Position numbers and translations under genes: made by a program | Shown here: in pieces, positions 13,701-40,884 of the stretch | Position numbering within the stretch: position 1 is the stretch's first letter | Layout: the number at the start of each line of letters is the position of its first letter | Assembly (NCBI GenBank): GCA_016180585.1 | Contig: JACPAX010000014.1 | Coordinates: forward strand, 1-62,161 | DNA: 62,161 bases | Direction: 5' to 3' | DNA from: Candidatus Omnitrophota bacterium | GTDB lineage: Bacteria; Omnitrophota; Gorgyraeia; 2-02-FULL-51-18 | Notes under the pieces: model-generated | Told to the model about the DNA's origin: nothing | Databases searched by the model: none | The model's input: only the letters and a program-made list of their open reading frames with translations

Positions 13701-13815
13701 GGTCGCCGTGATCGGCGGCGTGCTCGTGTCGACGACGCTGATTTTGTTCGTCGTCCCTTGCGCGTATCTGACACTTTCAAAATGGGAACGCGCGCGTTAT
13801 ACTACAGTCCGATGA
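10726..13815 (+). CDS. RND family efflux transporter (AcrB/HAE1-like)
   Basis: 1029 aa. N-terminus is IKNPVFAWMLMAALILFGFISYGGLGVSRMPEVDFPVVSV. It has a 12-TM RND layout and the VVDDAIMVLENI block. Confidence 0.92.
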   Translation: MTLSDISIKNPVFAWMLMAALILFGFISYGGLGVSRMPEVDFPVVSVQVDWEGAAPEIMESDVTDIVEDAVMSVQGIREVSSTTRQGVSEITIEFDLSRDIDVATQEVQAKVTQAQRRLPVEIDPPVITKVNPTDQPILWLGVSGTRSKRDLMAYVEDHLKNRFQTLPGVGDIILGGFVERNLRVWVSQKKLEDYQLSVNDVIDSIEANHVEKPAGRIETPEKEMNVRAMGEALSVGEFKKIVISKRGGQPVYKPIYLEDVAEIQDDLADQRRLSRIMGRTAVGLGIRKQRGANEVEVARAVKRRLKEVQKEMPRDLEIGINFDRSVFVEESIHELVFTLALSALLTALVCWVFLGHWSSTLNVLLAIPTSILGTFMAFKFLGFTLNTFTVLGLSLVIGIVVDDAIMVLENIVRRREGGEDRRTAAAEGARQIASAALATTLALIAVFLPVAFMKGIIGKFFFQFGVTISVAVFLSLLEALTLTPMRASQFLDVGERRTPFGRAVDGAFKKLSSAYRAALPRVLDRKGLVIVVSVVLFAGSLFLFKFLRKEFVPAQDQSMFMCRLKTPVGSSIEFTSDRFKQAESYIMSLPETRRYFGAVGGFGGGEVNSGILFVTLKPKPERGVREGRHRPMSQEEIMTEARKALNKIPDTTANLQDLSTMGFTAQRGYPIEFTVRGTNWEKLAERSEEIMRRMKETGLVVDIDTDYLLGVTEIQVVPDRQKALAHGIEMEKLAQAVNALVGGVRAGKYTRDNRRYDIRVRLKAEDRLDPERIKAIQIWNNRGEMVRLGEIVEIREKPSLMSITRRGRERAIGIFSNVAPKKSQADAIESVQRIAREVLPEGYRIVMSGSSKEFGESFGSLFFALWLGILIAYMVLASQYNSYVHPLTVLLALPFSVTGAALALFLAGQSLNIYSLIALILLMGIVKKNSILLVEFANEMRRRGLGARQAILEAGPVRLRPILMTSVSTIAAALPPALALGPGAETRIPMAVAVIGGVLVSTTLILFVVPCAYLTLSKWERARYTTVR

Positions 13816-13926
13816 AAAAGCCCAATCTGCAGCGTTACTCGGTCGCTCGCTTGTGCGGCGCTATTCCCATAGCGCCTCCGCGTTCGCTTCCTCGCGCCTC
13901 GCATCTTGGGCTTTTTGATCGGACTG
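13805..13926 (+). repeat. ~122-bp nested-palindrome element, full copy
   Basis: Ends are CAGTCCGATGAAAAAGCCCAA ... TTGGGCTTTTTGATCGGACTG. The central palindrome GGCGCTAT-tccc-ATAGCGCC lies at 13857-13876. It overlaps the RND stop codon. Confidence 0.9.
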
Positions 13927-13960
13927 TTCGACTCATAGGTTTTTCAGCAGCTAAGACCCC

Positions 13961-14554
13961 ATGAAAATAGTTTGCCTGGATATGGAGGGGGTGCTGACGC
14001 CCGAGATATGGATCCGCGTGGCCGAGCGGACCGGAATCCGGGAGCTTCGCCTCACCACCCGCGACGAACCGGATTATGACCAATTGATGCGCCGGCGACT
14101 CTCCCTCTTGAGAAAGCGCGGGATCACGCTGCGGCGGATTCAGGGCATCATCGCTTCGATGCGGCCGCTCGCCGGGGCGGGCGGCTTTCTGAGCCGATTG
14201 CGGGGCAAGGTCCCGGTCGCCGTCCTCTCCGACACCTATTATGAATTCGCGATGCCGCTGATGAAGAAACTGGGTTATCCGGTTTTGTTTTGCAACGGAC
14301 TGAGCACGGACCGCCGCGGGTTTATCGCGGATTATCATCTGCGGCAGCCCAACGGCAAACGGGAGGCCGTGCTGGCGTTTAAACGCATGGGTTTCCGTGT
14401 GGCCGCCGCCGGAGACTCTTACAATGACCTGGCGATGCTCCGCGCCGCCGACCGGGGGGTGCTCTTCAACCCGCCGCCGAAGATCGCCGAGGAATGCCGC
14501 TCGCTCCGGACGACGGATTCCTACCCGGGCCTCTTGAAAGAACTGCTCCGCTGA
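13961..14554 (+). CDS. thrH: HAD-family phosphoserine phosphatase/homoserine phosphotransferase (ThrH-like)
   Basis: [38 protein letters not shown] and [12 protein letters not shown] closely recall Pseudomonas ThrH. Confidence 0.75.
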
Positions 14555-15339
14555 TGGCCTCCACGATCACGATTCTGTCCTGGAACGTCAACGGCGTCCG
14601 CGCGGTTTTCAAAAAAGATTTTCTTCCCTGGCTCGAGAAAGAGTCCCCCGACATTCTCTGCCTTCAGGAAACCAAGGCCAGGCCGGACCAGCTTCCGCCC
14701 GAGCTTTTGAATCCCGAGGGTTACCGCGCGTTTTGGAACTCGGCCGAACGCCCCGGGTACAGCGGGGTGGCGACCTTTTCACGCCGGCAGCCTCTGGCGG
14801 TGCGGCCGGGGTTGGGCGATCCGCGTTTCGATTCCGAAGGGCGGGTCCTCGGGACGGAGTTCGAGGGCTTCACTCTTTTTAATATTTATTTTCCCAACGG
14901 GAAGATGAGCGCCGAGCGTCTGAAATACAAAATGGATTTTTACGATGAGGCGCTTCGCCATTTTATGAAACTGCGTAAACAGGGCAGGCGTCTGGTCGTT
15001 TGCGGCGACGTCAATACCGCGCACCGGCCCGTCGACCTCGCCCGCCCGAAGGAAAATGAAAAAGTCTCCGGTTTCCTGCCGATCGAGCGCGCGTGGCTGG
15101 ACCAACTCGTTTCCTCCGGGTTTGTCGACACCTTCCGCGTTTTTAACCGGGACCCCGGCCATTACACCTGGTGGGACACGATGACGCGCGCGCGCGAAAG
15201 AAACGTCGGCTGGCGGATCGACTATTTTTTTATCACCGAAGACCTTCGGAAAGACCTGAAAAACGCCTTTATCCTGCCGGAGGTCATGGGGTCCGATCAT
15301 TGCCCGGTCGGCCTCACGCTGAAGGCGGTCCCTTCGTAA
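14554..15339 (+). CDS. xth: Exodeoxyribonuclease III
   Basis: [38 protein letters not shown] and SDHCPV blocks. The ATG shares one base with the thrH stop (TGATG). Confidence 0.9.
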
Positions 15340-15561
15340 CCTAATCTTAACAAATCCGAAAAAAGCCCGTTATTGACCGGGCTATCCTGTGGTTTTGGGC
15401 TTTGTCCCGGCGGTCATGCGGTAATAATGTTGACGCCGGTCGGGAATGGGTATAGAGTTTGGATATTCCATAACGGGGAAGAGAGCATAAAGAAAGGGAC
15501 GGAAATGGCGGCGCTGCAGGGGTTTTCTTCAAGAGTGGCGGGTTTTAACGGAGACCGGACG

Positions 15562-17673
15562 ATGAAAGACAGACCGACAAAAGAATCGAACATCACCAGG
15601 CTTTTTGGATCGAACGTGTTCAGTGACCGCGCGATGAAAGAAAGGCTGCCCAAGGACACTTACCGGGCGCTCCGCGAGACCATCGACAAAGGGGCGCCGC
15701 TCACCCTGGAGGTGGCCAATGTGGTCGCCAACGCGATGAAGGACTGGGCGATCGAGAAGGGCGCCACCCACTACACCCATTGGTTTCAGCCGCTGACGGG
15801 CAAGACCGCCGAGAAACACGACTCTTTCATTTCCCCTACGGTGGACGGCGGAATTGTCATGGAGTTTTCCGGCAAACAGTTGATTCAGGGCGAGCCGGAC
15901 GCCTCCTCGTTTCCGAGCGGGGGGCTGCGCGCGACGTTTGAGGCGCGCGGTTACACGGCGTGGGACTGCACGTCGCCGGCGTTTCTGAAGGAGGATGCGG
16001 CCGGCAACGTCACGCTGACGATCCCGACGGCGTTTTGTTCTTACACCGGCGAAGCCCTCGATAAAAAGACCCCGCTTTTGCGCTCCATTGAGGCGCTTTC
16101 CAAACAGGCGATCCGCGTCTTGCGCGCGCTTGGCAACACCGTGTCTATGCGCGTGACGCCGACGATGGGGCCCGAGCAGGAGTATTTTCTCATCGACAAG
16201 ACGTATTATGATCGGCGCGTCGACTTGATCACGACCGGCCGGACGCTCTTCGGCGCCCCGGCCCCGAAAGGGCAGGAGCTCGAAGACCAGTATTTCGGCG
16301 CGATCAAAGACCGGATCTCGGCGTTCATGAAAGACCTGGATACCGAACTGTGGAAGATGGGCGTCTCGGCGAAGACCAAGCACAACGAGGTGGCGCCCGC
16401 GCAGTACGAAATGGCGCCGGTGTTCTCGACGATCAATATCGCCGCCGATCACAACCAGCTTGTGATGGAGACCATGCAAAAAGTCGCTTTGCGGCATGAC
16501 CTGGTCTGCCTCCTGCATGAAAAGCCGTTTGCGGGCGTGAACGGGTCGGGCAAGCACAACAACTGGTCGATGACCACCGACGACGGGTCGAATCTTCTCG
16601 ACCCCGGCAAAACGCCGCATGAAAACGAGCAGTTCCTGCTTTTCCTGTCGGCGTTGATCGTGACGGTCGACCGCCATGCGGATAAATTAAGGGCAGGGGC
16701 GGCCAACACCGGTAATGACCTGCGCTTGGGCGCCAACGAAGCCCCTCCGGCGATCATCTCGATTTTTATGGGCGAGGAGCTTACCGATATTTTGAATGAT
16801 CTGGCCAAGAGCAGAAAAGCCTCGGGCAAGGGTCAGCACTACCTGCATATCGGCGCCGACACCCTGCCGCAACTGCCCAAGGACAACACCGACCGTAACC
16901 GCACTTCGCCGTTCGCGTTCACCGGAAATAAATTTGAGTTTCGCATGGTCGCTTCCTCGGCCTCCATCTCCGGCCCGAACATCGTGCTCAATACGATCGT
17001 CGCCGAGGCGCTGGATGAGATCGCGACCCGCCTCGAAAAGGCCAAGGACGTCAACAAGGAGGCCGCGGCCATCGTGCGCGACGCGGTGAATCAGCACGGC
17101 CGGGTGATCTACAACGGCAACAATTACACCGAGGCATGGGTGAAGGAAGCCAAGAAGCGCGGTCTCCCGAACATCTCCTCGACCGTCGAGGCGCTGAAAA
17201 CGATGGCGACCCCCGAGGCCGAGAAGCTTTTCTCGAAATACAAGGTGCTTTCGAAGGAAGAGCTGCATTCGCGTTTCGAGGTCTACCTCGAGAAATACGC
17301 CAAAGACATCAACATCGAGGCGCAAGCCGCGATCTATATGGTCAAGCGTCTCTATGTCCCGGCGGTGATCCGTTTCGTCGATGAGCTGGCGGAGACCTGC
17401 GGTCGGCCAAAATCCTTGGGGACCACCCAAAAGTCCCTGCTTTCCAAGGCGCAGAGACTGCTGGATTCAGCGACCAAGCGCCTGGAGGAGCTGGAGACGG
17501 TGCTTGAGAAGGCCCAAGGAGTCCATGAGGCCTTGAAGCGCGCCGAAACCTATCGGGACAAGGTTGTTCCGGCGATGGCCGTGCTTCGCGGGGACATCGA
17601 TGCGCTTGAGACGATTACCCCGTCTGAGCTGTGGCCGGTGCCTTCTTACGCGGACATGCTGTTCAAGCTTTAA
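15562..17673 (+). CDS. glnN: Glutamine synthetase type III
   Basis: [24 protein letters not shown]...[11 protein letters not shown] and a length above 700 aa fit GlnN. The start is uncertain (ATG 15562 preferred, ATG 15505 possible; the ORF opens at 15373). Confidence 0.88.
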
Positions 17674-17778
17674 CAGTCCGATGAAAAAGCCCAATCTGCA
17701 GCGTTACTCGGTCGCTCGCTTGTGCGGCGCTATTCCCATAGCGCCTCCGCGCTCGCTTCCTCGCGCCTCGCATCTTGG
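17674..17778 (+). repeat. Nested-palindrome element, right end truncated
   Basis: Nearly identical to 13805-13909 and starts directly after the glnN stop. It diverges after ...GCATCTTGG, so the right terminal arm is missing. Confidence 0.9.
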
Positions 17779-17967
17779 CGGCCCCTCCGCCTGCAGGACG
17801 GGCGAAGGGGCTTGTTTTCACCCGGTTTTTTAAAAGGTTCCTAATGTCTTTTTTCATTTTTTTATTTCTTTTGGCGGCGAGGGAGTTATAATCGGATAGA
17901 TTGCCGAATCGTTTTATAAAGCACGCGGACTATAAATAAAGCAACACCTTTAACTTGAAGGAATTCC

Positions 17968-19194
17968 ATGGCCTATAGGGCCCTATACAAGAGCGACCAT
18001 CTCACCGACCGGGAGAGGAAAAACATCATTCTGCTGGATGTGATCCGCCGTAATGGACCCATCGCGAAGACGGACATTTCCCGGATCACCCAGTTTAATA
18101 TCGTCACCGTCTCCAATTACGTCGAGCATTATATCGAGCAGAAACTTGTCTTGGAAAAAGGGCTCGATATTTCCAGCGGCGGCCGGCGGCCGGAGCTTGT
18201 GGAGCTGAATGCCGATTGGGGGCGCATTATCGGCGTCGAGATCGGCCCCGCGCAGATCCTGGCGATCGTCGCCAATCTCGCCCCGATGATTCTTCACCGG
18301 GTGAAGGTGCAGAGGCCCGAGGGCCACATGGAAGTGGTGATTGCCGAGGCCGTGAAGCTTGTGCACCGGGTGATCGGCGAGTCGAAGATCCCGCTCGATA
18401 AAATCAAGGGGATCGGACTCGGCATCTCCGGCGTGATCGACCGGGGCGCCGGGACCATCCGCGACACCGATCCTTTGCGCGGACGCACGGTCGGGAGTTT
18501 CGCGACGGCCAAGTCCATCCTGGAAAAAGAATTTCGCGTGCCGGTCTCGGTCGGCAACGACGCGAGCTTGGCCGCGCTCGCCGAAAAAAAATTGAGCCTC
18601 AGAATCGACGATGAAAACGTGATTTATTTTTATTCGGACGTCGGCAGCGGCATCATCGCCAACAATGACTTGTTTTGGGGGTCAAGCTGGAGCGCGGGCG
18701 AGACCCAGCTCAATCTGGATGAGGCCGGGGATCTCGGCCTGGGGCCCTGGGTGTTCAGGACGGATTTCTTCAAATCCGAGGGGTTGGACCTGGGGATTGT
18801 CCGCCGCGCCAAAGAATCTTTGAAAAAACCGGGCGCCAAATCCAAGATCCTCGAGATGGCCAAGGACGTGGAAAAGATCGATGCGGGCCTGGTGTATGAG
18901 GCGGCCAAAAAAGGCGACGCGACGGCGGTGGGGCTTGTCGAGGAGGCCAGCACGCGGCTGGGCCTCAAAGTGGCGTATTTGACGAATTTTTTTAACCCCG
19001 AGGTCGTCGTGCTGGGCGGGGGCGTCGAGCAGGGCGGCGAGATCGTGCTCAACGTCGTGCGGCGCGTGGTCAAGCAGCTTGTCATGGAAGAGTGCGCGGG
19101 AGTGGTGAAAATTATTTTATCGCGCCTCGGCGAAGACGCGGTGGCCTTTGGCGCCGTGTGTCTTGTCACGCAGGAGCTTTTCGCGGAGGTATAG
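17968..19194 (+). CDS. ROK family transcriptional regulator
   Basis: N-terminal wHTH (ILLDVIRRNGPIAKTDISRITQFNIVTVSNYV), then a ROK sugar-kinase-like fold (GIGISGVID, VGNDASLAALAE). Confidence 0.85.
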   Translation: MAYRALYKSDHLTDRERKNIILLDVIRRNGPIAKTDISRITQFNIVTVSNYVEHYIEQKLVLEKGLDISSGGRRPELVELNADWGRIIGVEIGPAQILAIVANLAPMILHRVKVQRPEGHMEVVIAEAVKLVHRVIGESKIPLDKIKGIGLGISGVIDRGAGTIRDTDPLRGRTVGSFATAKSILEKEFRVPVSVGNDASLAALAEKKLSLRIDDENVIYFYSDVGSGIIANNDLFWGSSWSAGETQLNLDEAGDLGLGPWVFRTDFFKSEGLDLGIVRRAKESLKKPGAKSKILEMAKDVEKIDAGLVYEAAKKGDATAVGLVEEASTRLGLKVAYLTNFFNPEVVVLGGGVEQGGEIVLNVVRRVVKQLVMEECAGVVKIILSRLGEDAVAFGAVCLVTQELFAEV

Positions 19195-19196
19195 CC

Positions 19197-20435
19197 ATGC
19201 CCCTCTCAAAGCGGCGGCTTTTGGACCAGATGGAACTCAACGATCACGAGAAAAAAAATCTCCAGATCCTCGATACGATCCGCAAAAAAGGGCCGATCGC
19301 CCGGGCCGAGATCTCCCGCCTCATCGGGCTCAATATCGTGACGGTCACCAGCTACGTCGACCAATACATCAAAAAGGACGTGATCAAGGAAGTGGGGATC
19401 GACGTGTCGAGCGGCGGCCGGAAGCCGACCCTCGTCGACCTGAACCCCGAGGCGATTCACCTGATCGGCGTCGGTCTCAATCTCGTGGACATGATCGCGG
19501 TGCTGTGCAATCTCAAGGGAGATGTCGTTTTTCGCGTGCGAAAGGATCGCCCGCTCCAGTCCGGCGAGGGGCTGGTGATGGCGATGGTGTCGCTCGTCGA
19601 GGAGCTGATCCAAAAATCCAAGGTCGACGTCACAAAAGTCCACGGGATCGGGATCGGGAGCCCGGGTATTTTTAGCCGCGACGCCAGCTCCGTGCGCTGG
19701 CCCTCGGGGTTCCTTCACACCACCCCTTCGAAGGGGCCGCTCTCCATTTCGGTCTCCATCCATGGGATCTTCGAGGAAAAGTTCAAGATCCCCACGATCG
19801 TCGACAACGACGCGAACGCGGCGGTATTCGGCGAGGAATGGTACAGCAAAGGACTCGGCGTGCAGCACGCGATTTACCTGTATTCGGCGTGCGGATGCGG
19901 GTTTATCATCAACGGCCAGATCTACCGCGGCGCCAACGGCTCGGCCGGAGAATGGATTTTTGACAGGAAAGAGGACGACCTCCTGCCGGCGCTCATCGAG
20001 TCCTACAACTCGGGGAATTGGGAGAACGACATGGGCATCGCGCTGACGGCCCAGGTGTTGCACAGGGAAAACCCCGATTCACGGATCTATGAGCTGGTCC
20101 ATGGCGACGTCAAGAAAATCACGCTCTTCACCGTCATCAAAGCGGCGGAGGCGGGCGACGCGCTGGCCAACCGCCTGCTGAGGGAGGCCGGCGCGCGGCT
20201 GGGGAGAAAAACCGCGCTGCTGGTGAATTTGATCGATCCGGAAATCATCATCATCGGCGGGGGGGTCGAGGCCGCCGGCGTGCCCTTTATGGATGCGGTC
20301 AAGGAAGTCGTCAAGCAGATGGCCGCGCCGGAGGCCACCGAAAAGCTGCGCATCATCCCCTCGGCGCTCGGCGAGAACGGGGTGCCGCTGGGCGCGGCTG
20401 CGCTCGTCGCGCAAAACTATTTCATCAGCGCTTAG
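19197..20435 (+). CDS. ROK family transcriptional regulator, tandem paralogue
   Basis: Same architecture (ILDTIRKKGPIARAEISRLIGLNIVTVTSYV; VDNDANAAVFGE). ATG 19197 lies just after the upstream stop; the ORF opens earlier at 19092. Confidence 0.85.
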   Translation: MPLSKRRLLDQMELNDHEKKNLQILDTIRKKGPIARAEISRLIGLNIVTVTSYVDQYIKKDVIKEVGIDVSSGGRKPTLVDLNPEAIHLIGVGLNLVDMIAVLCNLKGDVVFRVRKDRPLQSGEGLVMAMVSLVEELIQKSKVDVTKVHGIGIGSPGIFSRDASSVRWPSGFLHTTPSKGPLSISVSIHGIFEEKFKIPTIVDNDANAAVFGEEWYSKGLGVQHAIYLYSACGCGFIINGQIYRGANGSAGEWIFDRKEDDLLPALIESYNSGNWENDMGIALTAQVLHRENPDSRIYELVHGDVKKITLFTVIKAAEAGDALANRLLREAGARLGRKTALLVNLIDPEIIIIGGGVEAAGVPFMDAVKEVVKQMAAPEATEKLRIIPSALGENGVPLGAAALVAQNYFISA

Positions 20436-20438
20436 CCA

Positions 20439-20459
20439 TCCGATGAAAAAGCCCAATCT
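20439..20459 (+). repeat. Fragment of the element's left arm
   Basis: TCCGATGAAAAAGCCCAATCT matches the left arm of the 122-bp element and lies directly after the ROK stop codon. Confidence 0.7.
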
Positions 20460-20472
20460 CCGCTTACTGTAA

Positions 20473-20844: not shown

Positions 20845-20871
20845 ACCAAAAGACGTTTGTTTGGTTGACGG
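20839..20871 (+). promoter_or_regulatory. BirA operator-like inverted repeat upstream of bioB
   Basis: TTGTAAACC-N15-GGTTGACGG, compared with the remembered proteobacterial bioO form TTGTAAACC-N14-16-GGTTTACAA. A TATAAT lies at 20883-20888. Confidence 0.45.
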
Positions 20872-20908
20872 TGGGGTTATGTTATAATCCTTCCAAAGAC
20901 GAGGGGCC

Positions 20909-25083: not shown

Positions 25084-25116
25084 ATTAGCACTCTGCTGAA
25101 AAACTTATAAGCCGAA

Positions 25117-25164
25117 CCGTCCGATCAAAAAGCCCAAGAGGCATTGGGCTTTTTCATCAGACTG
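25117..25164 (+). terminator. Minimal element copy (arms only), a terminator-like hairpin after bioD
   Basis: AAAAAGCCCAA-gaggca-TTGGGCTTTTT forms a perfect 11-bp stem flanked by the GTCCGATC/CATCAGAC arm sequences. The stem ends in a T run. Confidence 0.6.
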
Positions 25165-25172
25165 TTGGCGGA

Positions 25173-26330
25173 ATGGTTTTGACCCGATTTCCGGACGATT
25201 TTGAAGCCCGAATGGCCCTTTTGCAGGAAGCGCATTCGTTACAAAAAACCCCGCTCTACGACCGGCATGTCGCGCTCGGCGGCAAGATGGTGGACTTTGC
25301 CGGATGGCTCATGCCCGTTTATTACACGGGGATTATCGCCGAGCACCTCTGGACGCGCAAGTCCTGCGGGGTGTTTGACGTCTCCCACCTCGGGGAGATC
25401 CAGGTCAAAGGACCCGGGGCCCTTGACTTTCTCCAGTATCGCCTCACGAACGATCTGAATAAAATCAACGACGGCCAAATCCTCTACAACCTTCTCTGCG
25501 ACGAGGGCGGTTTCGCGCTGGATGACGTGCTGGCCTATCGTTCCGGAGCGGAGGATTTTTACCTCATCGTAAACGCCGCCAATATCGGGCGCGACTATGA
25601 GGCGCTCTCCCGCTACGCGCCGGCGTCGGTGTCGCTTGTCGACCGCAGCGATTCGACGGCCTGCGTGGCGATCCAGGGTCCGCGGTCCGAGGGAATTCTC
25701 GAACGTCTCTTCGGTTTTCGTCTTGAGGGCCTGCGTTATTATCATTTCGGGAAAGAAACGCTTGCGGGGCGGCCCGTCTGGATTTCCCGAAGCGGTTACA
25801 CCGGCGAGGATGGGTTCGAAATCTTTTCGGAGCCGGCGGCCGTGGGGCAGATCTGGGACAAACTGATCGGGGAGGGCCGTTCCTTGGGAACGCTGCCGGC
25901 CGGTTTGGGGGCCAGAAACACGCTCCGCCTGGAGGCGGGAAACGCCCTTTATGGCAGCGACATGGATCGCGCCACGACCCCGCTCGAGGCCGGGCTTGGC
26001 TGGGCCGTCTCGTTCGACAAGGGCCGCTTTGTCGGCCGCGACGGGCTTCTCAAACAGAAAGAACACGGCCCCCGACGCCGCCTCGTCGGGTTCAAGATGC
26101 TCGACAAGCCGATCGCCAGAGAAGGGTATCCTATTTTCAAAGCAGGCAGAAAGATTGGCGTGGTGACCAGCGGTTCTTACGGGCCAAGTGCCGGCTACAA
26201 TATCGGACTCGGGTTCGTGGAGGCGCAGTCGGCGGTTCGCGGGACGGGGATTGAAATCGAGGTGCACGGGAGGTCCGTCAGGGCCGAAATCGCGAAGCTC
26301 CCGTTCGTGCCTTCCCAACACAAGAAATAA
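25173..26330 (+). CDS. gcvT: Glycine cleavage system T protein (aminomethyltransferase)
   Basis: TPLYDRHVALGGKMVDFAGWLMPVYY, FDVSHLGEI and SRSGYTGEDGFEI blocks. ATG 25212 is an alternative start. Confidence 0.92.
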   Translation: MVLTRFPDDFEARMALLQEAHSLQKTPLYDRHVALGGKMVDFAGWLMPVYYTGIIAEHLWTRKSCGVFDVSHLGEIQVKGPGALDFLQYRLTNDLNKINDGQILYNLLCDEGGFALDDVLAYRSGAEDFYLIVNAANIGRDYEALSRYAPASVSLVDRSDSTACVAIQGPRSEGILERLFGFRLEGLRYYHFGKETLAGRPVWISRSGYTGEDGFEIFSEPAAVGQIWDKLIGEGRSLGTLPAGLGARNTLRLEAGNALYGSDMDRATTPLEAGLGWAVSFDKGRFVGRDGLLKQKEHGPRRRLVGFKMLDKPIAREGYPIFKAGRKIGVVTSGSYGPSAGYNIGLGFVEAQSAVRGTGIEIEVHGRSVRAEIAKLPFVPSQHKK

Positions 26331-28098: not shown

Positions 28099-29558
28099 GC
28101 GGGCTTCTCTTTGAAAGGCATTCCCTGAACGAGGCGTCGTGGCTCCCCGATCTCGGGGAACCCGAGGAAAAAACGCTGGCGCTGCTGCCCAAAGACGTCC
28201 TTCGCCAAAAGGGTCCCGAGCTGCCCTCTCTTTCCGAGCTGGACGTCGTGAGACATTTTACCCGTCTTTCCCAAAAAAACTTTTGCGTGGACGTCAATTT
28301 TTATCCGCTCGGGTCCTGCACGATGAAATACAACCCAAAAGCCCTCGACGCCATCGCGGCGATCGACTCATTCTCGCTGATCCATCCTTATCAGGAGGAA
28401 GAGGACGCGCAGGGCGCGCTGAAGGTCCTTTATGAGATGCAGTCTTTTTTGTCCGAGATCACCGGGATGGATGACTTTACGCTCGAGCCGGCCGCCGGCG
28501 CGCACGGCGAACTTTGCGGGCTTCTGATGATCGGCGCGTATCACCGTTCGAAGAAGCAAAAAAGGACGAAGGTCTTGATCCCGGACTCGGCCCACGGCAC
28601 CAATCCCGCGTCGGCCGCGCTCTGCGGGTACGAGGTGGCGCAGATCCGCACCGATGCAAAAGGCCACGTGGATGTCGCGGATTTAAAATCCAAACTGGAC
28701 GGTTCGGTCGCGTGTCTGATGATGACCAACCCCAACACGCTCGGTCTTTTTGAGGAGGAGATTCTCGGTATCGCCCGGTCGGCGCATGAGGCCGGGGCGC
28801 TCGTCTATTACGACGGCGCCAACATGAACGCCCTCCTCGGAATCTGCCGGCCGGGGGACATGGGTTTTGATGTCGTGCATCTGAATCTCCACAAGACCTT
28901 CGCGGTGCCGCACGGGTCCGGCGGGCCGGGCTCCGGCCCCGTCGGCGTAAAAAAAGAGCTCGTCCCGTTTCTGCCGTCGCCGCGGCTTGTCAAAAAAGGC
29001 GACGGCTACCGTTGGGAGAAAAACCTTCCTTGCTCCATCGGAAAACTTCGCGCGTACTACGGCAATTTCGGCGCGATCATCCGCTCCTACGGCTACATCA
29101 AGGCGCTGGGCGGAGAGGGGCTGCGCGCGGCGGCCGAGCACGCGATCTTAAACGCCAATTACCTCAAGGCGCGGCTCAAGGATTCTTTTGAGGTGCCTTA
29201 TGACGGTCTTTGCATGCACGAGTTCGTGATGTCCGCCGCCAGGCAGAAGAAAAAAGGGGTACGAGCGATCGACATCGCCAAGCGTCTTCTGGATTTCGGG
29301 ATTCACGCGCCGACGGTTTATTTTCCGCTGATCGTCGAGGAGGCGATGATGATTGAGCCCACCGAGACCGAATCCAAAGAGACCCTGGATGAGTTTGTCC
29401 GGGCGCTCGAGGCCATCGACAGGGAAATCGAAGAGGACCCCGAAAAAGTATTGGGGGCGCCGCACACGACTCCGGTAAGCCGGATTGACGAGGTCACCGC
29501 CGCGCGACAGCCGAATCTGCGTTATCGTCCCGAAGGGAAGGCCGGCGCGGGTCTTTGA
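28095..29558 (+). CDS. gcvPB: Glycine dehydrogenase (decarboxylating) subunit 2
   Basis: YPLGSCTMKYNPK and HLNLHKTFAVPHGSGGPGSGPVGV (PLP lysine block). Overlaps the gcvPA stop. Confidence 0.92.
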   Translation: MSGLLFERHSLNEASWLPDLGEPEEKTLALLPKDVLRQKGPELPSLSELDVVRHFTRLSQKNFCVDVNFYPLGSCTMKYNPKALDAIAAIDSFSLIHPYQEEEDAQGALKVLYEMQSFLSEITGMDDFTLEPAAGAHGELCGLLMIGAYHRSKKQKRTKVLIPDSAHGTNPASAALCGYEVAQIRTDAKGHVDVADLKSKLDGSVACLMMTNPNTLGLFEEEILGIARSAHEAGALVYYDGANMNALLGICRPGDMGFDVVHLNLHKTFAVPHGSGGPGSGPVGVKKELVPFLPSPRLVKKGDGYRWEKNLPCSIGKLRAYYGNFGAIIRSYGYIKALGGEGLRAAAEHAILNANYLKARLKDSFEVPYDGLCMHEFVMSAARQKKKGVRAIDIAKRLLDFGIHAPTVYFPLIVEEAMMIEPTETESKETLDEFVRALEAIDREIEEDPEKVLGAPHTTPVSRIDEVTAARQPNLRYRPEGKAGAGL

Positions 29559-30283
29559 TGGAGAGCGCGTCTTCCGTTTTCCGCCTGATTATCGATCCGC
29601 CGCGGCCGGCCGCGCTGAACATGGCCATCGACGAGATCCTGATGGATGCGCAGAAAACCCCCGCCGCGTTACCCTCGCTGAGATTTTATTCCTGGTCGTC
29701 TCCGGCGTACTCCCTCGGCTACTTTCAGGACGTCAGAGAGGTCGCCGCGCGTCGTCGCGCCGCGGGGAAAAATATTCCCGTTGTCCGGCGGATCACCGGA
29801 GGCGGGATGGTGCTTCACGGCAAGGACCTCACTTTTTCCCTGACGCTCAAATCCACGGCGCCTTTCCTGCCGAGGGAGGTCAAAGGCTCTTACCTTCGGA
29901 TTAATGAGGCGCTAAGGTCGGGGCTGGCGGAGCTTCTGCCGGAGATTGATTACGCCAGCTGTAAAGACGTTCCCTCGGGAAGGGCCGACGGCGAGCGCGT
30001 GTGTTTTGAGGCGCCAAGTTGTTACGACCTGTTGCTCGGGAGAAAAAAGGTGGTCGGATCCAGCCAGCGTCGTAAAGACGGCGCAGTGCTCCATCAGGCC
30101 TCGCTTTTTTTTGATCTCGACAGAGAAACAATGATTGACCGGATCTCTCGTGGTTTTGAGAAACAATGGGGGATTTTCTTCCGAGAAATTCCTCTAAGCG
30201 ACGAGGAACTGCTCCGGGCGGAGCAGCGCGCGGAAGAACGGTACGCCTCTCCCGAGTGGGCCTATCAACCGCTAACAGTCTGA
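29555..30283 (+). CDS. Lipoate-protein ligase / octanoyltransferase family protein
   Basis: BPL/LplA-LipB-type blocks (LNMAIDEILM, FYSWSSPAYSLGYFQ, VVRRITGGGMVLHG) in gcv operon context. Its stop codon lies inside the following repeat. Confidence 0.8.
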   Translation: MMESASSVFRLIIDPPRPAALNMAIDEILMDAQKTPAALPSLRFYSWSSPAYSLGYFQDVREVAARRRAAGKNIPVVRRITGGGMVLHGKDLTFSLTLKSTAPFLPREVKGSYLRINEALRSGLAELLPEIDYASCKDVPSGRADGERVCFEAPSCYDLLLGRKKVVGSSQRRKDGAVLHQASLFFDLDRETMIDRISRGFEKQWGIFFREIPLSDEELLRAEQRAEERYASPEWAYQPLTV

Positions 30284-30398
30284 TGAAAAAGCCTCATCTG
30301 CTGCGTTGCACGCTGCGCTCCCTTGTGCGGCGCTATTCCCATAGCGCCTCCGCGGTCGCTTGCATGCGCCTTGCATCTGAGGCTTTTTGATCAGACTG
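30276..30398 (+). repeat. ~122-bp nested-palindrome element, full copy (variant arms)
   Basis: CAGTCTGATGAAAAAGCCTCA ... TGAGGCTTTTTGATCAGACTG with the same central GGCGCTATTCCCATAGCGCC. An extra arm fragment lies at ~30408-30424. Confidence 0.9.
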
Positions 30399-30424
30399 TT
30401 TGGGCTGGGTTTTTCGGCAGACTG

Positions 30425-30583
30425 TTAAGGCTTCGTTTGTTTAGCGCGGGCTTTCGCGGCTTCTTTTTTTTGGTAACAATCGGGACAGTTGTAAAGAGGC
30501 TTGGCGAGCGTGCGGTCGTAGTCTTTGTCGACGACGACGCGCCGGACTTCCCGGACTTCTTTGCCGCAGGTGTCGCATTTCAT
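30425..30583 (-). CDS. Small zinc-ribbon protein (52 aa), absent from the supplied ORF track
   Basis: My translation is MKCDTCGKEVREVRRVVVDKDYDRTLAKPLYNCPDCYQKKEAAKARAKQTKP*. It has two CxxC pairs and fits exactly between flanking features. Confidence 0.5.
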   Translation of the reverse strand: MKCDTCGKEVREVRRVVVDKDYDRTLAKPLYNCPDCYQKKEAAKARAKQTKP

Positions 30584-33363: not shown

Positions 33364-33369
33364 AAGAAC

Positions 33370-34959: not shown

Positions 34960-34988
34960 AAATCTTAAAACAAGGAGGGTTCTTCAAG

Positions 34989-35303
34989 ATGTCTAGAAAT
35001 GTCTGGGGATGGCTTCTCGTGGCAGGCGCTTTGACGGCCGCCGGTTGCGCGACGGGCAGGGATTATCAGGCGGATATCGACGCGTTGAATTCGAAGGTGA
35101 CCGCGCTCCAGGGGTTGATTTCCCAGAAGGACGAGGAGATCGAGAAACTCAAGAACGAGACCAGGGAAGAATCCGCCGCCCGGATGCAGGCGGAGAATGA
35201 GCGTCGCCGGTTATCCGAAAAACTGGGCGCGGCGCTCGCCGAGCTCGAAGAGAGAAACAGGCCCGCCTCAAGGCCACAGATCCCGGATTCCGATCTCAAG
35301 TAA
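34989..35303 (+). CDS. Small coiled-coil lipoprotein (putative)
   Basis: Signal peptide ending in the lipobox-like LTAAGC, then a heptad-like charged helix. Confidence 0.55.
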   Translation: MSRNVWGWLLVAGALTAAGCATGRDYQADIDALNSKVTALQGLISQKDEEIEKLKNETREESAARMQAENERRRLSEKLGAALAELEERNRPASRPQIPDSDLK

Positions 35304-35325
35304 TGTTCCTTCCGCGCCGGCCGCT

Positions 35326-36726
<1,401 letters not shown>

Positions 36727-36796
36727 GCGGGCGTTGATTTTAAAAAGCAATGATGGCAGAATAAAGCGCTAAAAGAAAGGCAAAAGGACCGGGCAA

Positions 36797-37936
36797 ATGG
36801 TCGAACAAAGCGTGTTTTCAAAAGGGCTCGAGGACATCGTCGCGGCGGAAAGCTCCATCTGCTCGATTGACGGCAAGAATTCCAAGCTTTTGTACCGTGG
36901 GTATGAGATCCACGATCTGGTCGAGAATTCCAATTTTGAAGAAACGACGTACCTGCTTCTCTTTGGCGAGCTGCCGAAAGCGGATGAGCTGGCGGATTTC
37001 AAGAGAAAAGTCGCCGCGGAGAGAGAGCTTCCGCGCGGCGTGCTGGATCTGATCCGGTTGGCGCCCAAAGAGGCCAACCCGATGACCGTGCTCCGCACGG
37101 CGGTGTCCTGCCTGGCCTTGTTCGATCCCGAGGCGGATGACAAGTCTCCCGAGGCCAATGTGCGCAAGGCGTTTCGCCTGATCGCCAAGGTCCCGCTCAT
37201 CGTCGCCGCCTTTGAGAGGGTCCGGAAGGGGTGGGAAATCCTCCCCGCCAAACAAGAGGCCTCGGTCTCGACCGCCGAGAATTTCCTTTATCTGCTGAAG
37301 GGAAAAGAGGCCGCGCCCCTGGAGAGTCGGATGCTCGACCGCTACTTTATTCTTCTCACCGAGCACGACCTCAACGCGTCCACTTTTGCGGCGCGGACCG
37401 CCGCCTCCACGCTCTCCGACATCTACTCGGCGATGACGGCCGCGATCGGCACGCTGAAAGGCGATCTCCACGGATCGGCGAATACGCGCACGATGGAGAG
37501 CCTTCTGGCGATCGGGGATGCGCGCAACGTCGAGAAATTCGTCGAAGAGGCCATCGGGCAGAAGAAAAAATTCATGGGCTTCGGCCACCGGGTTTACAAG
37601 GGACCCGATCCTCGCGCGCATGATCTCAAGCGGATGTCCAAGGCCCTCGCCGACGCCTTTCCCGCGCAGGCGAAGTGGTACGCCATCTCGGAAAAGCTTG
37701 AGCAGGCCGTCTGGGAGAAGAAAAAACTGAACTGCAACGTCGATTTTTATTCCGCGTCGGTTCTCTACACCGTCGGCATCCCCACCGACCTTTTTACGCC
37801 GATGTTCGCCGTGAGCCGGACCGCCGGGTGGGCGGCCCATATTCTCGAGCAGTACAAGGACAACCGGTTGATACGCCCGGTCTCCCAGTATACCGGCGCG
37901 CCCCAGCGGCCTTACCTGCCCATCGGAAAGCGCTAA
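36797..37936 (+). CDS. gltA: Citrate synthase
   Basis: GFGHRVYKGPDPRA signature, TEHDLNASTFAART and the C-terminal RPVSQYTG. Confidence 0.92.
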   Translation: MVEQSVFSKGLEDIVAAESSICSIDGKNSKLLYRGYEIHDLVENSNFEETTYLLLFGELPKADELADFKRKVAAERELPRGVLDLIRLAPKEANPMTVLRTAVSCLALFDPEADDKSPEANVRKAFRLIAKVPLIVAAFERVRKGWEILPAKQEASVSTAENFLYLLKGKEAAPLESRMLDRYFILLTEHDLNASTFAARTAASTLSDIYSAMTAAIGTLKGDLHGSANTRTMESLLAIGDARNVEKFVEEAIGQKKKFMGFGHRVYKGPDPRAHDLKRMSKALADAFPAQAKWYAISEKLEQAVWEKKKLNCNVDFYSASVLYTVGIPTDLFTPMFAVSRTAGWAAHILEQYKDNRLIRPVSQYTGAPQRPYLPIGKR

Positions 37937-38021
37937 GCATATATTTTAAAATAGTTTCAAGCGGAAGCGGCGGTCCGCCAAACATCGCGTCGGACTCGCT
38001 GCAAGATGATATAAAGAATCA

Positions 38022-38103
38022 GCGGAAGTGGCGGAATTGGCATACGCGCAGGTCTCAGAAGCCTGTGCCGCAAGGCTTGAGGGTTCGACTCCCTCCTTCC
38101 GCA
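38022..38103 (+). tRNA. tRNA-Leu (anticodon CAG), long variable arm
   Basis: Hand-folded. Acceptor GCGGAAG/CTTCCGC+A; anticodon stem CAGGT/GCCTG with loop CTCAGAA; variable arm GCC-GCAA-GGC; T arm GAGGG-TTCGACT-CCCTC. CCA is not encoded. Confidence 0.9.
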
Positions 38104-38109
38104 TATTTA

Positions 38110-38745
38110 TTATTTCTTCTCTTCGAGTCCGAGATAGGGCTCCAGCGCCGCCCAAGTGCCGAGCCCTACTTTTCCGTCCACCTCCAGGCCGCGTGAAGCC
38201 TGAAACGTTCGGATGGCCGCAAGCGTGGCCGGCCCGATTTTTCCGTCGACGCGTCCCGTGTAGAGTCCCGCGTTTTTGAGGGCGGTCTGGATTTTTTCTG
38301 CGCCCACCGCCGCTCGGGAAGGCGCGGGCGCGGCTACCTCCTCATCCGGGATCGCCGCCGGAGCGCTGTCGGGGTCCCTGATTCTCTGAATTCCAAGAAA
38401 GGCCGTTTCGTTGGAGGGGTTGATGTCGAGCGCGTTGAGAAAGGCATTTTCGGCCCGGCCCAAATCCCCGAGGATCATGTAAGCGTGTCCCATGTTGGAA
38501 TAGGCGATATCGTCGTCGGGTTCAAGGAGAATGATCTCGGAATAGGTCTCGACGGCGCTGCGGAACCGGTTGAGGACGATGAACTCCTCCGCCTGCTTGT
38601 GAAGCCGGCTGAGGGTCTCGATCTTTGTTTGGTCTGCGGAGGTCCAGCTTCCGTCCGGGGACGGAGCTTCTTCCGCCGCCGGGGAAGCGGAGGGCAGGAC
38701 GGCGATCGCCAGAAAAACAAAAAGAAGAATGGGCGCCGGTTTCAT
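38110..38745 (-). CDS. Secreted TPR protein with C-terminal peptidoglycan-binding domain
   Basis: Signal peptide, TPR-like AYSNMGHAYMILGDLGRAENAF, and a PG_binding_1-like IQTALKNAGLYTGRVDGKIGPATLAAIRTFQ. Confidence 0.75.
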   Translation of the reverse strand: MKPAPILLFVFLAIAVLPSASPAAEEAPSPDGSWTSADQTKIETLSRLHKQAEEFIVLNRFRSAVETYSEIILLEPDDDIAYSNMGHAYMILGDLGRAENAFLNALDINPSNETAFLGIQRIRDPDSAPAAIPDEEVAAPAPSRAAVGAEKIQTALKNAGLYTGRVDGKIGPATLAAIRTFQASRGLEVDGKVGLGTWAALEPYLGLEEKK

Positions 38746-38774
38746 AAGTCGAAGGCTTGTGCTATATTAGCACC

Positions 38775-39248
38775 GTGAAAGAGAAAAAAGAAGCGCCGCC
38801 GGTTGTCACTCACCGCCAGGCAAGGCGGGATTATCTCATCCTCGAGAGCTTCGAGGCCGGGATCGCGCTGGTGGGCTGCGAGGTGAAGTCCCTTCGGGAG
38901 GGCCAGGCCAGCCTTGCCGGGAGTTTCGCGCGGGTTGAAGGGGGAGAAGTCTTCCTGTATAATCTCTACATTCCTCCCTACACCATGGGCGGCCGAGAGA
39001 GTCCGGACCCCCGGCGCAAAAGAAAGCTTCTCCTGCACCGGTCGCAGATCCACAAACTCAAGGCCAAGACCGATGAAAAGGGTCTGGTGCTCATTCCGCT
39101 GAAGATGTATTTCAGCGACCGGGGAATCGCGAAGGTGGAGCTCGGCGTCGGCAAGGGAAAAAAGTTTCACGACAAGCGTTCGGACATCAAGAAGCTCTCC
39201 GTCCGGCGCGAGATAGACCGCGCGATCAAGAATAGAAACAGGAAGTGA
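38775..39248 (+). CDS. smpB: SsrA-binding protein
   Basis: RQARRDYLILESFEAGIALVGCEVKSLR and LLLHRSQIHKL blocks, with a GTG start at 38775. Lies directly upstream of the tmRNA. Confidence 0.92.
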   Translation: MKEKKEAPPVVTHRQARRDYLILESFEAGIALVGCEVKSLREGQASLAGSFARVEGGEVFLYNLYIPPYTMGGRESPDPRRKRKLLLHRSQIHKLKAKTDEKGLVLIPLKMYFSDRGIAKVELGVGKGKKFHDKRSDIKKLSVRREIDRAIKNRNRK

Positions 39249-39261
39249 ACGCTGACAAATT

Positions 39262-39645
39262 GGGGGCGACAGGCATCGATCCAGCCCTTGATCTGCTAGT
39301 GGCATGCGGAGGTGGTCAGGAGGCCTCCTTAAACACCTGGCACAAATCAAACGCCAAACACACGAACAATGTGCATGTGCCCTTCGCGGGGTATATGGCG
39401 TTACCGTTAGCCGCCTAAACACGGCTACCGTCCGCTCATCTCTAGTCTGCGGGATGAGGCCGGGCGTCGAATGCAGACTGGTCTTATCCGCGCGCCTTTG
39501 GCGGGTTTGACGAGAGCGACAGAAGGCTTACCCTTTAAAATTGTGTCCGCTCAAGTTTAAAAGGGGAAAACAAAAAACGGACTAAGCATGTAGAGGCTAC
39601 AGACCTCAAAGGTTGGAGACGCGGGTTCAATTCCCGCCGCCTCCA
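39262..39645 (+). ncRNA. ssrA: tmRNA (ssrA)
   Basis: 5' GGGGGCGACAGGCATCGA pairs with the 3' ...CGCCTCCA acceptor (G3:U). T arm is GCGGG-TTCAATT-CCCGC. An internal tag ORF ends ...GCC GCC TAA. Confidence 0.9.
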
Positions 39646-39682
39646 CTCCTTCGCCCGCTATAAAAAAAAGCGGGCGAAGGAG
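39646..39682 (+). terminator. 13-bp perfect hairpin directly after the tmRNA
   Basis: CTCCTTCGCCCGC-tataaaaaaaa-GCGGGCGAAGGAG. No U tract follows, so its role (termination or 3' processing) is uncertain. Confidence 0.5.
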
Positions 39683-39784
39683 TGGCCTCCGAAGCTCCTT
39701 TGGCGTGTGTGTTGGAGCGTATTTGAAATTTGAAAAATACTTAAAATCAGGATCAGGAATTGCGTTCTCCAAGAAAAGACTAAT

Positions 39785-40351
39785 ATGAAACAAAAACGCG
39801 ACAGGCTGGTCTGGCTTGACCTGGAGATGACGGGTCTGGATCCGAAGGCCTGCACGATTCTTGAGATCGGGACCGTGGTGACGGACAACCGCCTGGACAT
39901 TATCGCCGAAGGACCCGTCATCGCGATTCATCACGGCGAAAAGGTTTTGTCCTCGATGGAGGAATGGAGCCGGTATCACCATCAGAAGTCCGGGCTGACC
40001 GAGGAGTGCCGGGCGTCAAAGGTCTCGCTCAAGCAAGCCGAGGAGCGGACGCTTGCGTTTATCAAAGCTCACTGCAAAGAAAGAACGGCCCCGCTTTGCG
40101 GCAACACGATTTGGCAGGATCGGCGGTTTCTCGTGAAGTATATGCCCCGGCTCGAAGGTTATCTGCATTACCGCATGATTGACGTCAGCTCCGTGAAGGA
40201 GCTTGTCGGGCGATGGTATGCCGGCGACCACAAGATGCCCCGCGCCAAGCGCCAGACGCATCGCGTGATGAACGATATCCTCGAGTCGATCGAGGAGCTT
40301 CGACACTACCGCGAAAAGGTGTTTGTCCCCGCCGCCGCGCCAGCGTCGTGA
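39785..40351 (+). CDS. orn: Oligoribonuclease
   Basis: LVWLDLEMTGLDP, ILEIGTVVTD, GNTIWQDRRFL and HYRMIDVSS (DEDDh) blocks. Confidence 0.9.
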   Translation: MKQKRDRLVWLDLEMTGLDPKACTILEIGTVVTDNRLDIIAEGPVIAIHHGEKVLSSMEEWSRYHHQKSGLTEECRASKVSLKQAEERTLAFIKAHCKERTAPLCGNTIWQDRRFLVKYMPRLEGYLHYRMIDVSSVKELVGRWYAGDHKMPRAKRQTHRVMNDILESIEELRHYREKVFVPAAAPAS

Positions 40352-40761
40352 CGCTCTATCCCGTCTCCGAAAAAAAGGTCCTTGCGCTCAGACAAAAAAT
40401 GGAAAAGCTCGGCCTGCGCGAGTCTGATTTTGAGGAGACGTTCGTGCGATCCCCGGGCGCCGGCGGGCAGAATGTCAATAAAGTTTCAAGCTGCGTGGCG
40501 CTGAGGCACCGTCCGACGGGGCTGGAGGTCAAGTGCCGGCGCGAGCGCTCTCAGGCGCTCAACCGGTATCTTGCCAGGCGGATCCTCGTGGAGAAGATTG
40601 AGACGCTTTTTCTCGGCAAGGCCTCCGAGGAGCGCCGCCGTATCGAGAAAATCCGCCGTCAAAAAAGAAAAAGGTCGAGGCGCGCCAAGGAAAAGATGCT
40701 GGAGGAAAAGCATCGCCGCTCGGAGAAAAAGATCTGGCGCGGCAAGGTGAGAGAGGATTGA
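40348..40761 (+). CDS. GGQ-domain peptidyl-tRNA hydrolase (ArfB-like / RF-1 domain protein)
   Basis: GAGGQNVNKVSS motif, ERSQALNR and a strongly basic C-tail. GTG 40348 overlaps the orn stop (GTGA). Confidence 0.78.
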   Translation: MTLYPVSEKKVLALRQKMEKLGLRESDFEETFVRSPGAGGQNVNKVSSCVALRHRPTGLEVKCRRERSQALNRYLARRILVEKIETLFLGKASEERRRIEKIRRQKRKRSRRAKEKMLEEKHRRSEKKIWRGKVRED

Positions 40762-40884
40762 CAGTCTGCTGAAAAAGCATCAGATGCAAGGTGCCTAGGA
40801 AGCGAGCGCGGAGGCGCTATGGGAATAGCGCCGCACAAGCGAGCGACCGAGCAACGCAGCAGGTGAGGCTTTTTCAGCAGACTG
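40762..40884 (-). repeat. ~122-bp nested-palindrome element, inverted copy
   Basis: The reverse complement aligns with the other copies, including the central GGCGCTATTCCCATAGCGCC. It fills the gap between two convergent stop codons exactly. Confidence 0.9.

Follow-up and report, generated by a model that had tools for sequence, protein, structure and literature searches.

Palindromic repeats at the stop codons of an Omnitrophota genome are probably miniature transposable elements derived from the IS5 family

The window analysed here (62,161 nt, contig JACPAX010000014.1 of the Candidatus Omnitrophota bacterium assembly GCA_016180585.1) carries several long palindromic repeats located exactly at the stop codons of its genes, and the question raised by this locus is which kind of element they are and how they reached that position. 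In an initial annotation, MITEs (miniature transposable elements with inverted repeats), repetitive extragenic palindromes (REP) with their BIME arrangements, and Correia-like elements were all proposed. Of these options, the first was borne out: very probably, the repeats form a MITE family derived from insertion sequences (IS) of the IS5 family in Omnitrophota, that is, a non-autonomous transposon of an ordinary kind in a little-studied phylum. The assembly comprises 1.57 Mb in 94 contigs, with a G+C content of 57.7% and a completeness of 81%. Hereafter, G000 is this genome, G001 a genome of the same genus, and C or L followed by a number designates a contig or a locus.

All the window copies listed in the initial annotation were present, with slightly shifted boundaries. 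An nhmmer model constructed from the four window copies detected about 44 loci, 28 of them full length, spread over at least 30 contigs of the genome, and further copies were found in related genomes. The mean pairwise identity among the copies of this genome was 0.88 (0.925 in the core and 0.82 in the arms), and the arm motif occurred 219 times in the genome vs 21 times in a shuffled genome. Several contigs begin or finish within a copy, so that these elements break the assembly of metagenome-assembled genomes (MAGs).

The elements measure 125–150 bp and have no coding capacity, the sole open frame being a read-through frame of approximately 42 codons. Their outermost 19–21 bp (ACAGTCTGMTGAAAAAGCC) are the terminal inverted repeats (TIRs) of IS5-family insertion sequences. 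The ends given in the initial annotation were in the right places, but the palindrome reaches 2–3 nt further, with TAA or TAG as its left limit and TTA or CTA as its right one. Two forms were distinguished. Type 2 is symmetric (arm, core, arm), while type 1 possesses a second right arm, R2 (GGTTTTTCAGCAGACTGT-TA), standing 6–10 nt beyond an internal one, R1. Type 1 accounts for ten of the 28 full copies, including those at 13802 and 30273, and its two ends, left arm and R2, are asymmetric, one being a AAAAAGCC end and the other an AAAAACC end. The short stretches previously taken for arm-like relics do exist, but those at about 13938–13951 and 30407–30425 are in fact R2, the true right end of composite copies, and that at 25093–25104 is the R2 of a core-less copy (25086–25168). 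Among the arm variants, CAGTTTGCCG was also seen.

A search for repeats in the window gave arms of 27–28 nt that are 89% complementary inside each copy, and several copies outside the window have perfect arms. The predicted fold of the full copies ranges from −62 to −69 kcal/mol (z from −7.7 to −8.7 with respect to shuffled sequence), and the core-less copy also folds beyond its shuffles (z −6.4). The core contains an apical hairpin module (GTGCGGCGCTATTCCCATAGCGCCTCCGCGCT) flanked by direct CGCTT repeats, which is missing in one copy. Eight copies hold one or two additional GC-rich hairpin modules (around 52 and 69 nt) at fixed points, inserted beside CGCTT or CT. The module of about 69 nt, module B (CCGCCACAAAGC...GGACCCGTCC...; also CCGCCACAAAGC...GGATCCGTCC...GGCGG), is nested in some MITE cores, and it was also found elsewhere in G000, at C30:15266 and C69:3690, precisely inside the loop formed by an unrelated hairpin repeat (TCCGATTTTCCTC/GGAGGGGAAAATCGGA) that occurs empty at C28:17150. 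This pattern looks like that of small hairpins inserting into hairpin loops.

The relationship with the IS5 family was established by scanning metagenomes with the 19-nt arm, which yielded 79 loci. Twenty of them were ordinary copies, on contigs whose proteins are 56–80% identical to those of the own genome. At nine other loci a second, inverted arm lies 0.57–1.35 kb off and the two arms enclose an open reading frame (ORF) of 361–386 aa or a truncated version of it. Six of the nine are elements of 1.23–1.36 kb, five with an intact frame of 361–397 codons and one, L132, with a broken frame; the remaining two-arm elements are internally deleted derivatives of 791 and 586 bp. Together they form a deletion series running from the IS (1.3 kb) through the 791-bp and 586-bp derivatives to the MITE. 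Candidates for the full-length autonomous partner recommended for search by the initial annotation were found, as IS5-family elements with identical TIRs on environmental contigs. Their proteins contain DUF772 and DDE_Tnp_1 domains (Pfam, above the cut-off for the L167-type). The L167-type transposase matched NCBIfam transpos_IS5_4 (NF033581) with 248 bits for a cut-off of 140, and the best model for the L140-type was IS1182, with 227 bits, under its cut-off of 270 bits, which makes the family of the latter less certain.

All eight distinct IS elements are flanked by Y-TA...TA-R, and in every one a AAAAAGCC end is paired with an AAAAACC end, the same asymmetry as in the type 1 MITE. In addition, TAGCAGTTTGCCGAAAAAG is common to the MITE copies on C8 and C55 of the own genome and to the IS derivative L096. 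That arm variants of the own genome recur as end variants of the IS provides a conventional reason why both arms change together. Further short elements with identical ends and other cores were present on the IS contigs. According to the proposed mechanism, a DDE transposase of the IS5 family would move the MITE in trans, after IS ends had captured a pre-existing conserved structured module and so generated it.

The MITE junctions agree with those of the IS. A pyrimidine precedes TA in 20 of 22 left junctions of own-genome copies and a purine follows it in 12 of 13 right junctions, most copies having TA at both junctions in the context Y-TA...TA-R. These flanks, common to the IS and the MITE, point to YTAR as the target, with duplication of TA, and a target-site duplication, one of the checks proposed at the outset, was thereby identified. 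Two-bp duplications occur in the IS5 family, in the IS427 group, as tabulated in PMC3281130.

Empty sites were also recovered. G001 is syntenic with the window and has no copy of the element, and its orthologues of the three sites at 13802, 30273 and 40759 are empty, around 123–130 bp shorter, although the comparison is made with a congener 76–83% identical and not with an isogenic empty allele. When ACAGTC...GACTGT and one TA are removed from site 40759, it reads GGATTACTGA against GGATTATTGA in G001, with nine of ten bases equal; the restored site is GAT TAC TGA and that of G001 GAT TAT TGA, both encoding Asp-Tyr-stop and overlapping the TAA of the convergent gene. Sites 13802 and 30273 are consistent with the same reconstruction based on TA duplication. 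At 30273, the right junction TA-AGGCTT and its flank (TAAGGCTT) match the region of the TAA stop of the G001 orthologue. In the reconstruction of 13802 before the insertion, the gene ends in ...RYTKTP-TGA and overlaps the following one by ATGA; the element entered nine bases upstream of the original stop and its TGA now ends the frame. A search of metagenomes for an exact empty allele of this last site found none. The presence of the element also differs among relatives, from 0 matches in G001 to between 1 and more than 20 in other genera. The AcrB-family gene at this site and the downstream HAD hydrolase gene are now 145 nt apart with the MITE between them (window 13950–13964; G001 C18 around 656–744), and their probable ATGA overlap before the insertion suggests translational coupling.

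The terminal bases of the element would account in part for the second half of the question, the position at stop codons. Of 27 full copies, about 20 have a well-scoring ORF that ends at element offset 0, +8 or +11, and the pattern was also observed in at least 16 copies of other genomes. No more than 13 nt into the element, two reading frames out of three have met a stop. Because YTAR includes TAA and TAG, and the element has A first and T last, an insertion in a stop codon recreates TAA on both strands: the left junction would read TAA and the right one TTA, the reverse complement of TAA. An insertion a few codons upstream of the stop would be followed by closure of the frame at the TGA of the element, at +8 or +11. 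Insertions of either kind would be nearly harmless and would therefore be those that survive, from which the position exactly at stop codons would follow. Target preference alone is insufficient: a called stop is overlapped by only 13.5% of the non-coding YTAR sites but by at least half of the full copies, and the survival of insertions that do no harm, or else an advantage at the 3' end, must contribute too. The model strand coincides with the sense strand of the upstream gene at 27 of 38 own-genome loci and in 16 vs 6 cases elsewhere, so this orientation is preferred, not obligatory. The family is a clean example of how the preference for YTAR and the terminal bases of an element can together render an insertion in a stop codon silent, as a consequence of which such elements accumulate at the gene ends of a compact genome.

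The window has three full copies (13802–13929, 30273–30402 and 40759–40887, the last in reverse orientation), together with a copy truncated on the right, another without a core and a fragment of an arm, and either the first triplet of an element or its internal TGA provides the stop of five genes. The first composite type 1 copy (13803..13953, plus strand; −62.6 kcal/mol, z −7.7) begins with TA at 13803–04, followed by the left TIR or arm from 13805, a core of about 80 nt with the apical hairpin GGCGCTAT-TCCC-ATAGCGCC, R1 up to around 13927, a 10-nt spacer, R2 at 13938–13951 with a 5-nt deletion, and TA at 13952–53. The AcrB-family gene at 10726–13815 stops at the TGA 13813–13815 of this element. 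The second composite type 1 copy (30273..30427, plus strand; −68.2 kcal/mol, z −8.7) has the same layout, with TA at 30273–74, left arm, core, R1 up to 30400, spacer, R2 at 30407–30425 and TA at 30426–27, and its TGA 30281–30283 is the stop of the lipoate-protein ligase gene at 29555–30283. The symmetric type 2 copy (40759..40887, minus strand; element proper 40761–40885) stands between convergent genes. There, TG(A) at 40759–40761 closes the RF-1-domain gene at 40213–40761, and the TPR gene encoded on the minus strand at 40885–41802 has its TAA stop in TTA at 40885–40887; the element is flanked by TG, a mutated TA, on one side and by TA on the other.

The right-truncated copy (17671..17778, plus strand) covers model positions 1–108, its right arm being absent, and its first triplet, TAA 17671–17673, is the stop of the type III glutamine synthetase gene at 15373–17673. 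From the left-arm fragment CCATCCGATGAAAAAGCCCAATCT (20433..20461, plus strand; arm 20436–20461) the core and the right arm have gone, and it lies directly 3' of TAG 20433–35, the stop of the ROK-family gene at 19092–20435. The core-less composite copy (25086..25168, minus strand) consists of R2', spacer, R1', a loop of 4–6 nt and the left arm, with a 50-nt stretch 90% complementary to 13901–13950; its neighbours are a gene for an AAA_26 ATPase-domain protein (Pfam PF13500), which runs to 25083, and a glycine-cleavage T-protein (aminomethyltransferase) gene, which starts at 25173. The position at stop codons claimed in the initial annotation was thus confirmed triplet by triplet, but its description of the repeats as always intergenic is inexact: the elements overlap stops, in two window copies the final codons of the gene upstream come from the element, and three 5'-truncated copies outside the window are fused in frame to upstream ORFs. 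In this way the elements change the C-termini of annotated proteins. Where the copy at 17671–17778 lost its right arm, the window has an unrelated GC hairpin with T-runs at 17779–17830 (GGCCCCTCCGCC...GGGCGAAGGGGC TTGTTTTCACCCGGTTTTTT), which by its sequence looks like a conventional terminator. Outside the window, the copy at C73:9408–9529 abuts the 5' end of tRNA-Ile, followed by tRNA-Ala, and is antisense to both; such a tRNA-Ile/tRNA-Ala pair is typical of the 16S–23S spacer.

The elements themselves also have a terminator-like layout. The inner arm GCCYCA...TGRGGC has A5 before it and T5 after it on both strands, and the stem encloses a structured insert of about 80 nt; a simple terminator scan (loop of 3–8 nt) gives no call, and no promoter-like site was detected in the elements by a simple promoter and terminator scan. 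Transcribed as a 3' trailer, the element would form a long hairpin with interruptions, and the A5, GC stem and T5 of its inner arm would give the layout of a bidirectional intrinsic terminator or of a 3'-end stabiliser. Elements of this kind can be misread as terminators or as small RNA genes. We considered that the core might have inserted into older terminator palindromes. Palindromes consisting of arms only are rare in the own genome (one or two vs about 35 with core), and this explanation is needless because the arms are IS TIRs. Two other functions were rejected. A reverse-strand GGAGG-N4-ATG opens a frame of 11–15 codons whose length and frame vary among copies, and a hammerhead reading of the left-arm CUGAUGA found no helix II or GAAA partner, the motif being present only in the variants with Y = T.

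The core has a history different from that of the ends. It is not derived from IS sequence, and it is 80–89% identical in other genera, where the arms can differ entirely. A scan for the core pattern in one genome per species gave 43 loci, all of them in MAGs labelled as Omnitrophota/Omnitrophica or 'uncultured Planctomycetia'. BLAST detected the element in 13 of the 24 genera of the own family and in four of six sister-family genomes, and a covariance model based on 49 diverse copies matched 17 of 151 genomes of the class, in at least six families, with 1 to more than 20 copies each. No core match was obtained in viral contigs. At the Rfam gathering threshold the window matched just tmRNA and a tRNA, the element being unmatched; with E up to 10, the search with one copy returned only a spurious lncRNA match of 10.5 bits.

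At least 19 copies lie 0–3 nt from tRNA 3' ends (Leu, Gly, Asn, Arg, Lys, His, Met, Thr and Tyr), all on the tRNA strand and in one orientation, some of them between tRNAs. The low-copy, near-complete genomes G016 and G024 have solely or mostly tRNA-linked copies. In G024, which is 100% complete, the locus L084 (C22:20543–20919) consists of tRNA-Thr, element, tRNA-Tyr and element, the two elements having differing arms, and no copies other than these two were detected in the genome. Where copies follow tRNA Leu-CAA, their arms are recognisably homologous between two genomes. As the core recurs with unrelated arms after tRNAs, it is older than its association with the IS ends.

Compensatory changes were found in 33 of the 43 predicted pairs, a count inflated by the relatedness of the copies. 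Once a weak helix was dropped, 94.2% of the cells of the remaining 40 pairs held standard pairs vs 78% in shuffles (0 of 500 as high), and the figure was 34–47% when the partners were slid. The apical stem changes between families, from GCTAT/ATAGC to GTACA/TGTAC, with the flanking motifs fixed. On these alignments, the structure of the core is under constraint. The two strands are not equivalent; an A.C mismatch on one strand is a G.U pair on the other. In 67 copies the sense strand shows 128 A.C mismatches vs 35 G.U pairs, A.C being favoured in 45 sequences and G.U in two, and in 55 of 61 copies the more stable fold belongs to the reverse strand, antisense to the upstream gene, the difference as RNA being 7.1 kcal/mol. 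Part of this asymmetry comes from a few inherited positions, such as pair 64/83, and the counts of distinct positions, around 22 vs 16, are less skewed. Known mutational asymmetries predict a bias opposite to the observed one. GC skew was of no use as a test of replication direction: being confounded with the strand of the genes (r = 0.91), it does not separate replication from transcription.

A different view of the purpose of the core, compatible with a MITE, has to be weighed here. The core could primarily be a functional structured nucleic acid of the Omnitrophota class, used in 3'-end processing, termination or stability, or as a protein-binding site, at the 3' ends of tRNAs and mRNAs or on the opposite strand; the MITE copies would then be a secondary, IS-assisted amplification. 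Its spread over at least six families, the low-copy genomes in which tRNA-linked copies prevail, the uniform strand and orientation after tRNAs of many specificities, the homologous arms after tRNA Leu-CAA, the compensatory changes with the excess of standard pairs, and the switch of the apical stem all speak for such a role. However, the core has no matching Rfam family, the element is absent from G001 and from most genomes of the class and so is dispensable, the co-transcribed sense strand is the poorer folder, and the kinship of the copies inflates the covariation counts. We regard this role as possible but doubtful. Less likely still is a more specific version, in which the core would be a class-wide functional element whose active fold is on the antisense strand, as an antisense transcript or as single-stranded DNA, kept for a long time at tRNA 3' ends and later captured by IS5-type ends, the nested GC hairpin modules being part of one hairpin-dependent process. 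With its covarying stems, its fixed orientation after tRNAs and its better antisense fold, the core offers a concrete starting point in the search for what may be a functional structure, of RNA or DNA, in a phylum without cultures.

Some observations count against an origin from the IS5 family. The IS5-type transposase gene was not found by tblastn in the own 81%-complete assembly, nor in 41 relatives and 151 genomes of the class, which gave only distant matches of 27–36%. The full-length ISs reside on contigs whose flanking proteins are just 29–43% identical to those of the own genome, and the sole element placed on an Omnitrophota-like contig (60% identity) is the 791-bp deleted derivative. 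Transposition does not account for the core, for the tRNA-linked copies whose arms are unrelated or for the folding asymmetry. With the gene missing from the assembly and from the sampled relatives, action of the transposase on the MITE ends is an inference.

Mobilisation by another enzyme was also contemplated, in which the repeats would be of the REP/BIME or REPIN type and would move as single-stranded hairpins by means of Y1 (HUH) transposases resembling RAYT (REP-associated tyrosine transposases), such as that encoded at 54–1091. The genome has six Y1_Tnp matches, and the product of 54–1091 is RAYT-like (Y1_Tnp 48 bits; NF047646 73 bits), but the latter score is under the cut-off of 80 bits and none of the six genes is adjoined by an element. 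Neither do the two co-occur across 41 genomes: Y1 is present in 31 of these relatives, including the element-free G001, G002 and G005, and G029 has seven element matches and no Y1 match. The mosaic construction, with GC hairpin modules at fixed points beside CGCTT or CT, and the strand-asymmetric folding would suit such a system, as would arms that differ between copies yet remain complementary, but those arm variants match variants of the IS, and TA duplication with ends identical to IS5-family TIRs is a simpler account. Besides, the arms begin with (T)A-[AG]CAGT and lack the GTAG or CGTC tag, which REPs, palindromic units of 20–40 nt, bear at one end according to the abstract of PMC3733652. 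The REP/BIME option consequently fails on its defining features and we hold it to be very improbable; the initial annotation was right not to link the repeats to the Y1 gene, for no link was found. It had also envisaged that the copies could be parts of one duplicated gene tail, and a segmental duplication was considered as well. Some copies do supply the last codons of the upstream gene, but the flanking genes (AcrB-family pump, type III glutamine synthetase, lipoate ligase, RF-1-domain and TPR) are mutually unrelated, the similarity ends at the TA junctions and the orthologous sites in G001 are empty, so that this explanation has practically no chance of being correct.

Other partners were discarded. 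An IS630/Tc1-type element was hinted at by the TA duplication and the CAGT ends, but DDE_3 occurs in one of 41 relatives and not in the own genome. The single gene for a DUF559 nuclease (C42, 1026–1340) is flanked by unrelated BoxC-like hairpins; this locus, L087 (C42:800–1480), has a 119-aa DUF559 gene bracketed by BoxC-like hairpins (CCTCCCCTTCGTAAGGGGAGG, TCCCCTCCTTGCGAAGGAGGGGA) and by GGGGAACGGGGAGGTTAAGCAC repeats, unrelated to the MITE. Integron sites of the attC/VCR type do not agree with flanks that are scattered housekeeping genes on many contigs without cassette arrays, and no IntI-directed search was made.

Returning to the IS5-derived MITE, the elements correspond to the MITEs characterised, together with the TA-flanked elements of the ERIC type, in PMC3184786: they are under about 400 bp without a transposase ORF, and have TIRs, a target-site duplication and dispersed copies that differ in presence or absence. 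They share with the IS5 family and its MITE derivatives the 19–21-bp TIRs, identical to those of the elements of 1.27–1.36 kb, the YTAR context and the TA duplication, whose length of 2 bp is that given by PMC3281130 for the IS427 group. Unlike IS5-derived MITEs, the core here is not an IS remnant but an independent, older structured module. ERIC/IRU elements of Enterobacteriaceae are likewise imperfect palindromes of about 127 bp with TIRs and TA at both termini, located in transcribed regions at gene 3' ends and with effects at the RNA level (PMC3184786). However, no sequence relationship with ERIC was found, the host phylum is another and ERIC has no identified partner IS, whereas in the elements described here the terminal triplets serve as stop codons and one subclass is tRNA-linked. 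Longer ERIC variants reportedly arose from insertions at fixed internal sites (Wilson & Sharp 2006).

Correia elements of Neisseria are also TA-duplicating; they lie beside genes, form long RNA hairpins and have size variants. They are MITEs of around 104–157 bp with TIRs of about 26 bp, as summarised in PMC3184786. Their sequence and host are unrelated, they have promoters and an IHF site, whereas nothing promoter-like was found here, and they are often 5' of genes, in contrast with the 3' location of the present elements. SPRITE is an interspersed repeat with a predicted terminator-like fold downstream of genes (PMC3184786, citing Croucher 2011), but its sequence is unrelated, no TIR or IS relationship is reported for it in the portion of PMC3184786 devoted to it, and the terminator-like stem of the Omnitrophota element, unlike that of SPRITE, encloses the structured insert. 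REP, BIME and REPIN-RAYT systems resemble the elements in their intergenic position at gene 3' ends, hairpins and mosaic architecture, and in the presence of RAYT-like genes in the genome; they differ in that here there is neither a GTAG/CGTC tag nor a repeat-flanked RAYT, but TA duplication and DDE-type IS ends. No description of the element was found in the Omnitrophota literature searched, and a recent Omnitrophota complete-genome paper makes no mention of MITEs, palindromes or terminators. Apparently, no repeat family of Omnitrophota had been characterised before this one.

Other repeats were observed in this genome. Another dispersed family of long palindromes (CCCGGCAAGCTTTGTCCTCAACCGG...CCGGGTGAGGATAAAGCTTGCCGGG) is present at C28:17061, C79:5982, C44:8037, C62:13896 and C66:28. 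The ORF at 54–1091 encodes 345 aa with the Y1_Tnp/RAYT-like domain at the N-terminus, and its 3' end (963–1073) holds four copies of GACCCCTTAC, a sequence absent from the rest of the genome; contig starts are the location of four of the six Y1 genes. At 4348–4725 of the window, at least 12 tandem units of 21 nt, corresponding to an EPKIKVD-like repeat of seven residues, lie in the ORF at 3444–4787, one of three FecR-like paralogues. Finally, a 30-nt inverted repeat, 93% complementary and with its halves (46140–46169 and 46365–46394) 195 nt apart, extends across the junction of the ORFs at 45438–46295 and 46338–46718.

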